A stretch of DNA of 64,000 nt from Escherichia phage AV112. A program made the translations under genes and the position numbers. The stretch lies in sequence record OR352942.1. One strand, 5' to 3'. The notes under the pieces were generated by a model, which saw nothing but the letters and a program-made list of their open reading frames with translations, searched no databases and had not been told where the DNA came from. Every line of letters starts with the position of its first letter. The stretch's first letter is position 1. Below, piece by piece: positions 33,013 through 50,886 of this stretch.

Positions 33013-33230
33013 GTCACCTTTAAGCAGTATTCTTCTACATGCTGTTTACGACCTTTCTTATCAATAAAGGTATATTCAACGAATGTTCCGATGTAGTCTT
33101 TATCTACATCATGTGGACTATTAATTGGACATTTGGTACGACAAATGCGTTCCCATTGACGAATAATTACTGCCTTATTCTTTGGGTCATATGGATGTGG
33201 ATAATGTATATTCATAATAATGGTTCCCAA
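33003..33230 (-). CDS. Hypothetical protein
   Basis: 75 aa ORF. Confidence 0.4.
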   Translation of the reverse strand: MGTIIMNIHYPHPYDPKNKAVIIRQWERICRTKCPINSPHDVDKDYIGTFVEYTFIDKKGRKQHVEEYCLKVTWL

Positions 33231-33709
33231 TCAACAATCACAATTTCTAGTTTAGTGGAATACGTATCTAAAATCTCTTCGATGACATCCCAGTTTCCAC
33301 CACCGATACCTGCACCAATTCTTGGCATATAAATTACAGGCTTTGTTATCTTATTCTTTCCGAATTCATTTAATTCTATTATACAATTCATTAAAGCATA
33401 GTACTCAAAATTAGGTCCAGGCTCAAACTGTGTATAAAGATTAAAGCAATAAGCTTTATGGGTCTTAAAATATTTTTCATAAACCGAATAAGTCCCGAGT
33501 TTAGACTCGTCTCCGAATTCGGTTTGAAGTTTATCGGCTTCTAAAATTTTTGGATAAGCCTTTGCTAATTGTCCTGCCACACCAGCGCCCATTGTATGAA
33601 AACAATTACACCCATGAGCAATATTATTACCTTTAGAAAACAGGGCGACAATATCGCCCTTGATATAGTTTTTAATCACTTGCTGCAAGTCCTCTAGTAT
33701 AAGAGTCAA
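33212..33709 (-). CDS. Macro-domain protein (ADP-ribose binding/processing)
   Basis: Gly-rich motifs NIAHGCNCFHTMGAGVAGQLAK and IGAGIGGGNW are characteristic of macro domains. Confidence 0.5.
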   Translation of the reverse strand: MTLILEDLQQVIKNYIKGDIVALFSKGNNIAHGCNCFHTMGAGVAGQLAKAYPKILEADKLQTEFGDESKLGTYSVYEKYFKTHKAYCFNLYTQFEPGPNFEYYALMNCIIELNEFGKNKITKPVIYMPRIGAGIGGGNWDVIEEILDTYSTKLEIVIVDWEPLL

Positions 33710-34019: not shown

Positions 34020-34558
34020 TCTTTTATTTCCAGTAGTTTGTTTGATTTAAGGTAATTAGCCTTTTCTAGGACTTCAGAAGCATATTTACTTCCAGCACTT
34101 GTCTTCCATCCCGCATTATATGAGGATATAGCTTTTCTTATATCCCCGTTATGTATATTTAACCAATAAGAAAATTCGATATAAGCCCATCTGGCTGAAT
34201 TAGACCGCTTAGATAGCATTTTCTTAATTTGGGCATCAGTCATATTATAACCAAGCTGGTTAATTCTTGCCCTCATTGTTGGTAGATAATTTTGGAACAT
34301 TCCATACGCATGGTGACCTTTCTTATCTTTAAGATTAATACCGGCAGATGATTCCTGCCATAGTATTGCGGCCATTATGTATCCAAGTCCTTTCTTATGC
34401 ATGTTTTCATGCGTTTTAAATTTTCCATCCTTAGAAAACTGTTCCCCAAACTGATAAGCATAATTCAAGTTATCGAGTTGGACATTACTAAAAGTATGCT
34501 CGGAGCTATGTGCTGATAATGAAAGAGCAAATAGACCAGCGAGTAGTGCTTTTCTCAT
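34016..34558 (-). CDS. Periplasmic lytic transglycosylase-like protein (SLT domain)
   Basis: Signal peptide plus LWQESSAG and GMFQ motifs typical of SLT-family catalytic sites. Confidence 0.55.
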   Translation of the reverse strand: MRKALLAGLFALSLSAHSSEHTFSNVQLDNLNYAYQFGEQFSKDGKFKTHENMHKKGLGYIMAAILWQESSAGINLKDKKGHHAYGMFQNYLPTMRARINQLGYNMTDAQIKKMLSKRSNSARWAYIEFSYWLNIHNGDIRKAISSYNAGWKTSAGSKYASEVLEKANYLKSNKLLEIKE

Positions 34559-34566
34559 GTTTACCT

Positions 34567-35025
34567 CTAGATTTTAATCACTGCTTTAGAAGCTTTTCCT
34601 GGTAGTCGTTTACTGTTAATAATAGCCATTCTGCATTGAAGAGTCTTCATTTTGAACGCTGGATTTTCGCGACAAACTGTAAGTCCTAACCAAAGATTTC
34701 CGTCAGTTATTTCTAAACGGCCTGGGCGATATTCGACACCTTCGACAAAATCTTCATCAACATCTGGACGTGCCGGCATTGATAAAAATTCTGTAACTTC
34801 TTTAACATGATTTTTTACTTTACGAAATAATTCAAAAACGTAGTTCTCATCTATTTCTCTCTGGATGGCACGATCTAAGAGATGTTGAGAATACTTGATA
34901 TGAAAGCCTGGTAGTCCAAGAGACTTTGCAGCATCTTTTATACCGGCATTTATTTTGCGGAACTCCGTTTCAAAGATTCGACGGAGTTTATTACGGCGGA
35001 TAAAAACGTCAGAATTGATAGTCAT
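34567..35025 (-). CDS. regB: Endoribonuclease RegB
   Basis: 152 aa; MTINSDVFIRRNKLRR...YSQHLLDRAIQREIDE...RMAIINSKRLPGKASKAVIK is near-identical to recalled T4 RegB. Confidence 0.88.
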   Translation of the reverse strand: MTINSDVFIRRNKLRRIFETEFRKINAGIKDAAKSLGLPGFHIKYSQHLLDRAIQREIDENYVFELFRKVKNHVKEVTEFLSMPARPDVDEDFVEGVEYRPGRLEITDGNLWLGLTVCRENPAFKMKTLQCRMAIINSKRLPGKASKAVIKI

Positions 35026-35054
35026 TTTTTATTTCTCCTCTAGTTGACAGGTCT

Positions 35055-35083
35055 ATAGTAACACATCTAGAGGAGAAGTAAAC
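35055..35083 (-). promoter_or_regulatory. Sigma70-type early promoter upstream of regB
   Basis: Minus strand reads GTTTAC, a 17-nt spacer, then TACTAT. Confidence 0.5.
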
Positions 35084-35087
35084 TACT

Positions 35088-35303
35088 TTATTGATAAAAT
35101 GGAGTTAAAGCCCAAGATTCTTTAGATACCATATCGGCGAAATGCCTCATCTCTTCGATTTGGCGACGACGCTGGTCAGCATAGTCTTCTTCGCCTTCTT
35201 CCTTACAATCTTCAAGGTCTTCTTCAAGATACTTTAAGTATTCACTACAAATTTTGTTGATCTTTTCTTGAAAGTCCAATAACCCTGTAATAGTAGAAGC
35301 CAT
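35088..35303 (-). CDS. Small acidic protein (vs.3 position)
   Basis: 71 aa ORF. Confidence 0.4.
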   Translation of the reverse strand: MASTITGLLDFQEKINKICSEYLKYLEEDLEDCKEEGEEDYADQRRRQIEEMRHFADMVSKESWALTPFYQ

Positions 35304-35569
35304 TAGTATTTTTCCTCAGGTCGAAATACTGCACGACACGCCCACATGCTGGCTTCTTTTAGATGTTGCTTAGCATACTTAAGAGCCTGCACTGCATCCA
35401 TATCTTCTTTGGTTTGTTGCTCTGATTCATTTTCTTTCAAGATATATGCTTCTTCAATCAGAGCATCAAACATCAATCCAAGACGGACTTCTGCATCTTT
35501 AATAGCGTTCACTTTACTGATTTTATCATCGGTATGCGGCTTGTAGCCTTTGATGTCTTCAATCGACAT
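35303..35569 (-). CDS. Small protein in the T4 vs.4 position (candidate Acb2-like cyclic-nucleotide sponge)
   Basis: 88 aa from MSIEDIKGYKPH, preceded by GAGGAAATTCCTT-ATG; identity is by position only. Confidence 0.35.
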   Translation of the reverse strand: MSIEDIKGYKPHTDDKISKVNAIKDAEVRLGLMFDALIEEAYILKENESEQQTKEDMDAVQALKYAKQHLKEASMWACRAVFRPEEKY

Positions 35570-35783
35570 AAGGAATTTCCTCATCGGTGGCAAGGTCATA
35601 TTCGACCAATTGGATAGGCTCATTAATACCGTATCCGCGTACAGTGATATCGGTTGACGGATATTTTCCAGTAATATCACCAATTCTAAATGATTCAATG
35701 AATGATTGCTCGCCTGAGCAACTAAACCAGGCGGCAAAACATTTTAAAACATCTTCAGACCCTTCTATAATCAATTTAGCCAT
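35559..35783 (-). CDS. Hypothetical protein (vs.5 position)
   Basis: 74 aa ORF. Confidence 0.4.
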   Translation of the reverse strand: MAKLIIEGSEDVLKCFAAWFSCSGEQSFIESFRIGDITGKYPSTDITVRGYGINEPIQLVEYDLATDEEIPYVD

Positions 35784-36145
35784 TATAGGCTCTCAGTAAA
35801 GGTACGAGCGATAACGTCGCGCTGCTGTTCCGGAGTCAGAGAGTTAAAGCGAACTGCATAACCGGATACACGGATGGTCAGCTGTGGATATTTTTCCGGA
35901 TGCTTAACTGCATCTTCCAGAGTTTCACGACGCAGAACGTTAACGTTCAGGTGTTGACCACCTTCAATTTTAACTTTAGGTTGATGTTCAATTTCAATTT
36001 CACGGGCATTCAAACCGTAGAAAATTTCTGGGTCTACAATAGCGTCTTCTTTAAAAGTCTTAGAGACAATAATCCGGGCTTGAGCACCGTCTTCAAAATA
36101 AATAGTGCCTTTATGTACACCTTCAAGAATTTGATATGCTTTCAT
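35783..36145 (-). CDS. Autonomous glycyl-radical cofactor protein (GrcA/YfiD-like)
   Basis: C-terminal 60 residues are essentially identical to recalled E. coli GrcA ([59 protein letters not shown]), including the RVSGY glycyl-radical motif. Confidence 0.8.
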
Positions 36146-36151
36146 ATAACC

Positions 36152-36508
36152 TCAATTAGAAAATAAATTTATCCAAGATTTTTCTTTAATCAAAAATGGG
36201 TCGGAATTAAACGCCATTAAACTTTGGGTGATTAATCCCTTAAATGGTCCATCAATAAATTCCATTTTGAAATGTGGAATACTAGTCATCAACCGTGCAT
36301 TAGGAGCAGTACAAAGAACCTGCTGACCTGCGAACGGACCTTTAGTCAAACGATATCGTTTAGGTTTAAAATGGTAAATCTCGTAATTTTCTACAAGAGC
36401 CCTTTTATTGCATACTGGGCTGTTATAACAATACTCAAAAACTTCAATAGTGGTCATCATTGCATTCCAATCACAAAAAATTGAGGACGAGCAATACCGC
36501 CGATGCAA
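36152..36508 (-). CDS. Hypothetical protein
   Basis: 118 aa ORF. Confidence 0.4.
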   Translation of the reverse strand: MHRRYCSSSIFCDWNAMMTTIEVFEYCYNSPVCNKRALVENYEIYHFKPKRYRLTKGPFAGQQVLCTAPNARLMTSIPHFKMEFIDGPFKGLITQSLMAFNSDPFLIKEKSWINLFSN

Positions 36509-37032
36509 TATTTGCTTTTGCAGCAGTGCTGTATTGCTTTAATATGGACATTGTAAATCTTATCCATATCAGGAGCTTTAATAGGCTCGTCAATTATATA
36601 CAGAATACGAGAAAGCGTTAATCCACGGAATTTAGAACCTTCATTACCAATAAAACTACGGACAGAATCAGTAAATAAACGGAATCGAATATCATCGCTA
36701 GAATAACGTGAAAATTCTTTTTTAATGTTGCCAGCAGAAATTTTAGCATAAGCTGAAGTATTAGAAAGAACAATAACTGTTCCACCATCGAGCAGCCAAT
36801 TAGCGGCAAAATTAGTTACTGCGGTAGATTTACCAGATTGTCTGCCACCGTCTAAACGAAGTGTACAGTACTGCTTGAGTACGTCTTCAAATGGTGGGGC
36901 ACAACCGTTCTTACAAATTTCTTCTACTCTAGCATCAGAATGGTGTGTAAAAGCATTCATCAGGGATAGATAAGGTCCAGTTAAAAATGTTCTCATATTA
37001 TTTCTCTTAAGGTTTGGGCCATTCCATGGCAC
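36457..37032 (-). CDS. P-loop protein
   Basis: Walker A DGGRQSGKST. Confidence 0.45.
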   Translation of the reverse strand: MPWNGPNLKRNNMRTFLTGPYLSLMNAFTHHSDARVEEICKNGCAPPFEDVLKQYCTLRLDGGRQSGKSTAVTNFAANWLLDGGTVIVLSNTSAYAKISAGNIKKEFSRYSSDDIRFRLFTDSVRSFIGNEGSKFRGLTLSRILYIIDEPIKAPDMDKIYNVHIKAIQHCCKSKYCIGGIARPQFFVIGMQ

Positions 37033-47683: not shown

Positions 47684-47759
47684 TGGTCGAGACAGTAGGG
47701 GTCGAACCTACGACCTAGGACTTAGAAGGTCCTTGCTCTTCCTTCTGAGCTATGCCTCG
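47684..47759 (-). tRNA. tRNA-Arg (anticodon TCT)
   Basis: Manual cloverleaf: acceptor CGAGGCA/TGTCTCG, D-arm GCTC-AGAAGGAA-GAGC, anticodon loop CTTCTAA, T-arm GTAGG-TTCGACC-CCTAC, encoded CCA. Confidence 0.85.
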
Positions 47760-47763
47760 GATT

Positions 47764-47838
47764 TGGCGGACATGCATGGATTCGAACCATGGACCAATTG
47801 ATTAACAGTCAACTGCTCTACCACTGAGCTACACATCC
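47764..47838 (-). tRNA. tRNA-Asn (anticodon GTT)
   Basis: Manual cloverleaf: acceptor GGATGTG/CATGTCC, anticodon loop CTGTTAA, T-loop TTCGAAT, encoded CCA. Confidence 0.8.
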
Positions 47839-47842
47839 AAAT

Positions 47843-47929
47843 TGGTTGGGAGTGATGGAGTCGAACCACCTGAGTCGCAATGACAATGGATTTACAGTCC
47901 ACACCGCTACCTCTACGGGATAACTCCCC
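47843..47929 (-). tRNA. tRNA-Tyr (anticodon GTA), long variable arm
   Basis: Anticodon arm GTGGA-CTGTAAA-TCCAT, long variable arm, T-arm GGTGG-TTCGACT-CCATC, encoded CCA; the 5' acceptor boundary is uncertain by 1 nt (a 1:72 mismatch if the start is 47929). Confidence 0.6.
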
Positions 47930-47938
47930 AAATTAATT

Positions 47939-48013
47939 TGGTGGCCCTGGGTGGAATTGAACCACCATCTGGCGATTATGAGTCGCTTGCTTGAACCTTC
48001 CAGCTACAGGGCC
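47939..48013 (-). tRNA. tRNA with CAT anticodon (Ile-lysidine type as in T4, or Met)
   Basis: Acceptor GGCCCTG/CAGGGCC, anticodon loop CTCATAA, T-arm GGTGG-TTCAATT-CCACC, encoded CCA. Confidence 0.8.
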
Positions 48014-48014
48014 T

Positions 48015-48090
48015 TGGTGCTGATTGACGGAATTGAACCACCGACCTTCTCATTACAAGTGAGTTGCTCTACCTACTGAGCTAAATCAGC
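48015..48090 (-). tRNA. tRNA-Thr (anticodon TGT)
   Basis: Acceptor GCTGATT/AATCAGC, D-arm GCTC-AGTAGGTA-GAGC, anticodon loop CTTGTAA, encoded CCA. Confidence 0.85.
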
Positions 48091-48095
48091 AAAAC

Positions 48096-48185
48096 TGGCG
48101 GAGGCGATAGGATTTGAACCTATGAGTCGCCGGAGCGACTGCCGGTTTTCAAGACCGGTGCATTAAACCACTCTGCCACGCCTCC
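48096..48185 (-). tRNA. tRNA-Ser (anticodon TGA), type II
   Basis: Acceptor GGAGGCG/CGCCTCC, anticodon arm CCGGT-CTTGAAA-ACCGG, long variable arm, T-loop TTCAAAT, encoded CCA. Confidence 0.85.
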
Positions 48186-48187
48186 AG

Positions 48188-48261
48188 TCTCCATACAAGG
48201 ATTTGAACCTTGGACCTCCTGATCCCAAATCAGGCGCTCTACCAAACTGAGCTACACGGAG
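48188..48261 (-). tRNA. tRNA-Pro (anticodon TGG)
   Basis: Acceptor CTCCGTG/TATGGAG (C1:G72), anticodon loop TTTGGGA, T-loop TTCAAAT; CCA is not encoded. Confidence 0.8.
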
Positions 48262-48271
48262 TAAATTAAAT

Positions 48272-48345
<74 letters not shown>

Positions 48346-48350
48346 AAATT

Positions 48351-48437
48351 TGGTGCGAGAAGTGGGACTCGAACCCACAAGGAAATCATTCCGCAGCATT
48401 TTAAGTGCTGTGCCTTTACCAATTTGACCATTCTCGC
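48351..48437 (-). tRNA. tRNA-Leu (anticodon TAA), type II
   Basis: Acceptor GCGAGAA/TTCTCGC, anticodon arm CAGCA-CTTAAAA-TGCTG, long variable arm, T-arm GTGGG-TTCGAGT-CCCAC, encoded CCA. Confidence 0.85.
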
Positions 48438-48438
48438 G

Positions 48439-48511
48439 CTGGGAATAAAGGACTCGAACCTTTGCATCCTGGAATCAAAATCCAGTGCCTTACCAACTTG
48501 GCTAATTCCCA
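48439..48511 (-). tRNA. tRNA-Gln (anticodon TTG)
   Basis: Acceptor TGGGAAT/ATTCCCA (U1:A72, typical of Gln), anticodon loop TTTTGAT, T-loop TTCGAGT; CCA is not encoded; only 1 nt separates it from tRNA-Leu. Confidence 0.85.

Positions 48512-50200: not shown

Positions 50201-50886
<686 letters not shown>

Follow-up and report, generated by a model that had tools for sequence, protein, structure and literature searches.

The closest described relatives of the gene analysed here are the anti-CBASS protein 2 (Acb2) homologues of phages T4 and PaMx33. Acb2 sequesters cGAMP, an alarm molecule of bacteria, and thereby blocks immunity by CBASS. In the T4 protein, Vs.4, residues Y8 and F82 stack on cGAMP, and Y8, H11, K23, and R79 bond it (Jenson 2023, PMC10097602). 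T4 Vs.4 is inactivated by S74N and by T12I, and its hexamer is held by L29, A66, A73, and A77 and, more mildly, by F33; mutating these residues abolishes or destabilises the hexamer (PMC10097602). In PaMx33 Acb2, the residues essential for cGAMP binding are Y11 and K26 (PMC10312549). The three-fold pocket of the PaMx33 protein is a site for cyclic trinucleotides (cA3/cAAG) and is closed in T4 (PMC10312549). R67 and T74 are essential for cA3 binding by PaMx33 Acb2; their T4 equivalents are D61 and T68 (Cao 2023, PMC10312549), and T4 Vs.4 does not bind cA3 even when it carries D61R (PMC10312549). A variable middle is a general, known trait of the Acb2 family, from which Jenson et al. gathered 198 Vs.4 homologues by way of PHROG 717 (PMC10097602) and for which the homologue set of Hadary et al. 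comprises 84 proteins (PMC12393519).

Acb2 is also met by host guards. Panoptes-type guards sense the sequestration of decoy 2',3'-c-di-AMP, and F82C in T4 Acb2 is a Panoptes escaper mutation. The Acb2 proteins that have been tested with Panoptes are T4's own and that of Bas38, which is apparently not one of the two Mosigvirus isolates in the BASEL collection. In the searchable literature, we found no paper naming both RB69 and Acb2 and no Panoptes test of a Mosigvirus allele. Here, we analysed a window of 64,000 nucleotides from Escherichia phage AV112 (OR352942.1) and describe an ORF within it that is very probably the Mosigvirus (RB69-type) orthologue of T4 vs.4, encoding an Acb2 predicted to act as a cyclic-nucleotide sponge.

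Results

Genomic context of vs.4

The window is RB69-like (Mosigvirus) phage DNA; over bases 34500-36200, it matches Escherichia phage AV113 with 100% identity and RB69, a member of the genus Mosigvirus, with 97.6%. The features of the locus are the following.

34567-35025: regB (Pfam REGB_T4, E=8e-69)
35088-35303, minus strand: vs.3 homologue, RB69ORF117c-like, 71 aa, acidic (phrog_2037; BLASTP to T4 vs.3)
35303-35569, minus strand: vs.4 (predicted acb2) coding sequence, 88 sense codons plus the TAA stop at 35303-35305
35559-35783, minus strand: vs.5, 74 aa, upstream of vs.4 (phrog_1986, E=1.6e-37)
35579-35582, minus strand: Shine-Dalgarno core GAGG of vs.4, within the 3' end of vs.5
35783-36145: vs.6, GrcA-like (Pfam Gly_radical domain)

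The local order of regB, the vs.3-like gene, vs.4, vs.5, and the GrcA-like vs.6 is that of T4 and is syntenic with both T4 and RB69. The RB69 RefSeq record lists tk.4, vs, vs.1, regB, ORF117c, vs.4, vs.5, vs.6 (GrcA), vs.7, and vs.8 in that order and names the orthologous ORF vs.4; its product differs from the Vs.4 of the window at two residues, S18G and S49T. A sequence-only reading of this DNA had put an ORF in the vs.4 position, between regB and a GrcA-like gene, and the T4 and RB69 annotations and the domain scans of the neighbours agree with that placement. The interval from regB to vs.6 holds two further small genes, the vs.3 homologue and vs.5, as it does in T4. The ORF117c-like protein shares 38% identity with T4 vs.3 across 65 aa (BLASTP, E=1e-11). 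Judged by sequence, RB69 ORF117c and T4 vs.3 are diverged homologues, a relationship that the RB69 annotation does not record.

The genes are tightly packed around vs.4. The ATG of the vs.3 homologue shares 1 nt with the vs.4 stop codon (TAATG), an overlap that is identical in T4, and the last 11 nt of vs.5 overlap the start of vs.4. The presence of overlaps on both sides of vs.4 suggests a polycistronic, translationally coupled unit, and the TAATG arrangement suggests that vs.4 and vs.3 may be translationally coupled in a manner conserved with T4. Because a promoter scan of the 33.5-38.5 kb region was uninformative (13 sites, against 14.8 expected from shuffled sequences), the early expression that we expect for vs.4 is read solely from its membership in a T4-like early-gene cluster.

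Several other features of the window were recorded in passing. A tk.4 homologue at 33212-33709 (minus strand) lies on the same strand as vs.4, about 1.6 kb downstream (lower coordinates), and has a Macro (ADP-ribose-binding/hydrolase) domain (Pfam E=2.9e-6); a link between this domain and ADP-ribose-based host defences is conceivable. On the other side, at 36460-36960 (minus strand), is a vs.8 homologue of 167 aa (phrog_1488, E=7e-72) with weak, sub-threshold matches to P-loop/terminase-N-like ATPases (Pfam Terminase_6N, E=0.003; AAA_14, E=0.007). An Rfam scan of the whole window returned only tRNAs at 47.7-48.5 kb and nothing near vs.4. The tRNA genes form a cluster of 10 at 47684-48511 (minus strand), comprising Arg-tct, Asn, Tyr, Met, Thr, Ser, Pro, Gly, Leu, and Gln. 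The tRNA complement differs from that of RB69, since just two, Arg and Met, are annotated in the corresponding region of the RB69 reference.

Gene call and start codon

The vs.4 frame runs on the minus strand from an ATG at 35569-35567 to a TAA at 35305-35303, and its translation is MSIEDIKGYKPHTDDKISKVNAIKDAEVRLGLMFDALIEEAYILKENESEQQTKEDMDAVQALKYAKQHLKEASMWACRAVFRPEEKY. Upstream, the sequence reads ...GATGAGGAAATTCCTT-ATG. The sequence-only reading had called an ORF of 88 aa at 35303-35569, naming no strand, and had credited it with a good ribosome-binding site. Both statements hold: the ORF is on the minus strand, and GAGG stands 9 nt before its ATG.

The frame remains open further 5', up to a TTG at 35737, from which a mechanical ORF list gives a reading of 144 aa. 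All 120 homologue clusters begin with M(S/A)IEDIKGY or MIEDIKGY, and their lengths range from 81 to 98 aa. Because all homologues begin at the equivalent Met and fall within this range of lengths, we take ATG 35569 to be the real start of vs.4. The 144-aa reading is rejected on account of these homologue starts and lengths, and the extension would overlap vs.5. An antisense ORF of 66 aa on the plus strand (35346-35546) was set aside, as both the homology and the signature of selection belong to the minus-strand frame. Compared codon by codon with T4 vs.4, both conserved segments of the gene are under strong purifying selection, and this signature, together with the match to T4 Vs.4, excludes the reading that the ORF is not a gene.

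Family assignment and predicted fold

Sequence searches place the protein in the Acb2 family. A phmmer search of PDB sequences returned one strong match, over the full length, to 7UQ2 (T4 Vs.4 with cGAMP; E=7.9e-30). BLASTP against T4 vs.4 gave 64% identity (E=2e-37), and the overall identity to T4 Vs.4 was 64-66% across alignments. The protein scored 64.8 bits against the Pfam model PF24729 (Acb2_Tad1_hairpin), for which the cutoff is 27, and it matched phrog_717 with E=1.5e-27. A search of 5.8 billion proteins yielded 141 homologues, every one of which has PF24729; those that are named in their source are called "hypothetical protein," "vs.4," or "Acb2/Tad1 hairpin domain-containing protein." A profile built from 45 homologues reaches PaMx33 Acb2 (8H2J and 8IXZ; E=8e-5). 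A further profile search, of 1.84 billion representatives, gave 80 matches at E<=1e-3, which speaks to the breadth of the family and otherwise adds nothing.

An AlphaFold2 model of the protein (pLDDT 85.5) is a two-helix hairpin with helices at residues 13-42 and 50-81. The best three Foldseek matches of this model in the PDB are chains of 7UQ2 (TM 0.69-0.71, probability 1.00), and PaMx33 Acb2 (8H2X and 8H2J) comes lower in the list, with about 17% identity in the structural alignments. The superposition of the monomer model on 7UQ2 is moderate, with an rmsd of about 4.5 A. The termini, which carry part of the pocket, are modelled with low confidence (pLDDT 57 for the first ten residues and 68 for the last ten). 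With these low-confidence termini, no strand in the model reaches three residues, and positions 9 and 87 are isolated bridge residues. The proposal of an Acb2-like protein, a predicted sponge, which had originally been made from gene position, thus finds support in sequence, fold, and individual residues; the alignment with T4 Vs.4/Acb2 that had been suggested as a check on it shows clear similarity (E=7.9e-30, 64% identity).

Predicted dinucleotide pocket and hexamer interface

Identity to T4 Vs.4 is unevenly distributed along the protein, which can be divided into three segments.

35459-35569, minus strand: conserved N-terminal segment, residues 1-37, 32 of 36 identities with T4
35375-35458, minus strand: variable hairpin tip, residues 38-65, 5 of 28 identities with T4
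35306-35374, minus strand: conserved C-terminal segment, residues 66-88, 20 of 23 identities with T4

In the N-terminal segment, Y9, H12, and K24 belong to the pocket, T13 is the helix cap, and L30 and F34 are interface positions; in the C-terminal segment, A66, A73, and A77 belong to the interface and S74, R79, F82, and P84 to the pocket. In a global alignment, T4 Y8, H11, T12, K23, L29, and F33 correspond to Y9, H12, T13, K24, L30, and F34, all of them identical, and A66, A73, S74, A77, R79, and F82 are the same residues with the same numbers in both proteins. PaMx33 Y11 and K26 align to Y9 and K24 in the profile alignment. Across the 120 homologue clusters, Y9, H12, K24, A66, S74, R79, and F82 are invariant, and L30, A73, and A77 are at least 97% conserved. 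The codon analysis against T4 vs.4 gave a pN of 0.07 and a pS of 0.79 for the N-terminal flank and a pN of 0.09 and a pS of 0.60 for the C-terminal flank.

By homology to T4 Vs.4 and PaMx33 Acb2, we infer a mechanism in which two long antiparallel helices would make up the hairpin of each 88-residue chain and six chains would be interlocked as a hexamer of about 61 kDa. One cyclic dinucleotide, either 3',3'-cGAMP or a related dinucleotide, would be trapped in a pocket at each of the three dimer interfaces. In such a pocket, Y9 and F82 would stack on the purine bases, and H12, K24, and R79 would hold the phosphates and riboses through polar contacts. The signal would be sequestered without being degraded, so that CBASS effectors such as CapV would stay inactive and the phage cycle could be completed.

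Variable hairpin tip and ligand range

The hairpin tip behaves very differently from its flanks in the comparison with T4 vs.4: in the middle segment (residues 38-65), pN (0.62) approaches pS (0.70), and column entropy across the 120 homologue clusters is 2-3.5 bits. At the sequence level, the tip appears to carry almost no amino-acid constraint, with relaxed constraint and diversifying selection being indistinguishable here. The tip also contains the residues that line the three-fold pocket, and this lining is altered, with I38, M57, V60, Q61, and K64 in place of T4 Y37, A57, L60, D61, and T64. Because the middle 28 residues bear essentially no relation to those of T4, affinity and ligand spectrum could differ from those of the T4 protein. 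We consider it unlikely that the rewritten tip, in which Y65, Q68, and H69 lie near the three-fold pocket, forms a second ligand site of new specificity or alters how Panoptes-type guards recognize or exploit the protein, either of which would make the tip an arms-race surface. Nothing that we found suggests a functional effect of the divergent tip.

A related explanation keeps the protein among the Acb2 sponges and gives it a broader or altered ligand range: beside or in place of cyclic dinucleotides, it would bind cyclic trinucleotides or some other nucleotide signal in a working three-fold pocket made by its tip. Such a reading would fit the replacement of all five three-fold pocket residues relative to T4, the near-neutral or faster evolution of the middle segment, and the variation in ligand spectrum that exists among Acb2 homologues. 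The positions of the two residues on which cA3 binding by PaMx33 Acb2 depends argue against it. R67 and T74 fall opposite T4 D61 and T68 in our alignment, exactly as Cao et al. state, which validates the alignment, and both are replaced in the window protein, by Q61 and Q68. Furthermore, helix 2 has no Pro or Gly matching the P65-G66 kink of PaMx33 and is modelled as continuous from residue 50 to residue 81, as in T4, whose protein fails to bind cA3 even with D61R. A variable middle, moreover, is common to the family as a whole. An extended range therefore seems quite improbable. Since Q61 and Q68 replace R67 and T74 and the Pro-Gly kink is missing, we predict a dinucleotide-only sponge like that of T4, one that does not bind cyclic trinucleotides.

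A specificity for Thoeris signals, rather than an anti-CBASS role, would make the protein a 3'cADPR sponge like Acb2_43. There is precedent within the family, in that ten Acb2 homologues inhibited type I Thoeris (Hadary et al. 2025, PMC12393519) and Acb2_43 binds 3'cADPR and does not inhibit CBASS (PMC12393519). Acb2_43, however, relies on extra N- and C-terminal beta-strands and on L6, V7, H5, and K19 (PMC12393519), whereas in the window protein the cGAMP pocket of T4 is present in full (Y9, H12, K24, S74, R79, and F82) and identity to T4 Vs.4 is 64-66%. The retention of the full cGAMP pocket disfavours 3'cADPR specificity, and we regard this explanation as very improbable. Equally little credence attaches to a decayed allele that kept its ORF and lost nucleotide binding: natural losses of function have been reported (in the T2 allele, a mutation likely to disrupt the dinucleotide site; in PaMx41 acb2, a premature stop), and Panoptes-like guard systems select for such alleles, but here the ORF is intact, all residues with an experimentally tested role are retained, purifying selection acts on the flanks, and about 135 phage records, among the 1,232 with a homologue, share the allele at >=90% protein identity.

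Discussion

Besides the predicted dinucleotide sponge, the window encodes a second anti-CBASS protein, the nuclease Acb1 (57B).

50204-50656, minus strand: 57B/Acb1 homologue, 151 aa, 100% identical to RB69 57B

The product of this gene matches PDB 7T26 (E=3.5e-59) and the Pfam model PF23474 Acb1 (198 bits), and the label "RNA ligase" that RB69 RefSeq gives to the 57B/Acb1 gene looks like a misannotation. With an Acb1 nuclease and an Acb2 encoded in one window, the phage would possess a two-pronged anti-CBASS set, as T4 does. The finding implies that RB69-like phages carry both the Acb1 nuclease and the Acb2 sponge, as T4 does, and we predict that they should evade CBASS of the cGAMP type. Because the dinucleotide pocket is intact, F82 included, the window protein would be expected to trigger Panoptes, and RB69-like phages are predicted to be sensitive to decoy-nucleotide guards that fire upon sequestration by Acb2.

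The value of the assignment lies mainly in annotation. Solved structures, a Pfam model, and a described mechanism exist for the family, of which the protein is a typical member, so that the biology is already known and no new mechanism is implied. Among 60 listed of the 1,232 phage records with a homologue, nearly all name the product "hypothetical protein," and one names it "anti-CBASS protein 2." Such genes can safely be named acb2/vs.4.

Comparison with known systems

One of the three described relatives that we compared is Acb2_43 (Hadary et al. 2025, PMC12393519), the hexamer of which has pockets at three vertices. It shares the family hairpin with the window protein and departs from it in its additional terminal beta-strands, its binding of 3'cADPR, and its lack of CBASS inhibition, whereas the window protein retains a pocket of the cGAMP type.

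PaMx33 Acb2 (8H2J/8H2X/8IXZ; Huiting 2023; Cao 2023, PMC10312549) shares its Pfam family and its hairpin fold with the window protein. The Tyr of the IKGY motif (Y11 in PaMx33 and Y9 here) and the Lys that follows it (K26 and K24) are found in both proteins at a spacing of 15 residues, and PaMx33 R85 and P90 correspond to R79 and P84. Unlike the relationship to T4 Vs.4, that to PaMx33 Acb2 is detectable only by profile (E=8e-5). The high-affinity cA3/cAAG site of PaMx33 is not expected in the window protein, because R67 and T74 are changed to Q61 and Q68 and the P65-G66 kink is absent. As it has neither the Arg and Thr at these positions nor a kinked helix, which in the dual-pocket (PaMx33/JBD67-type) subgroup enlarges the three-fold pocket, we do not assign the window protein to that subgroup of cyclic-trinucleotide binders.

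T4 Vs.4, or T4-Acb2 (7UQ2; PMC10097602), is the best PDB match. The two proteins differ in the hairpin tip, where residues 38-65 are essentially unrelated, and at T4 T68, which is Q68 here; the window protein also lacks the C47/C50 pair of T4, has a loop that is one residue shorter, and carries an extra N-terminal S2. In other respects the likeness is close. Both proteins have 88 aa, both genes occupy the slot in the series regB-vs.3-vs.4-vs.5-vs.6 and have a 1-nt overlap with vs.3, and Acb1 is found in both phages. All residues that contact cGAMP or build the hexamer interface are identical, and the same two-helix hairpin is predicted, which is consistent with a model in which the phage AV112 protein is a dinucleotide sponge of the T4 type.
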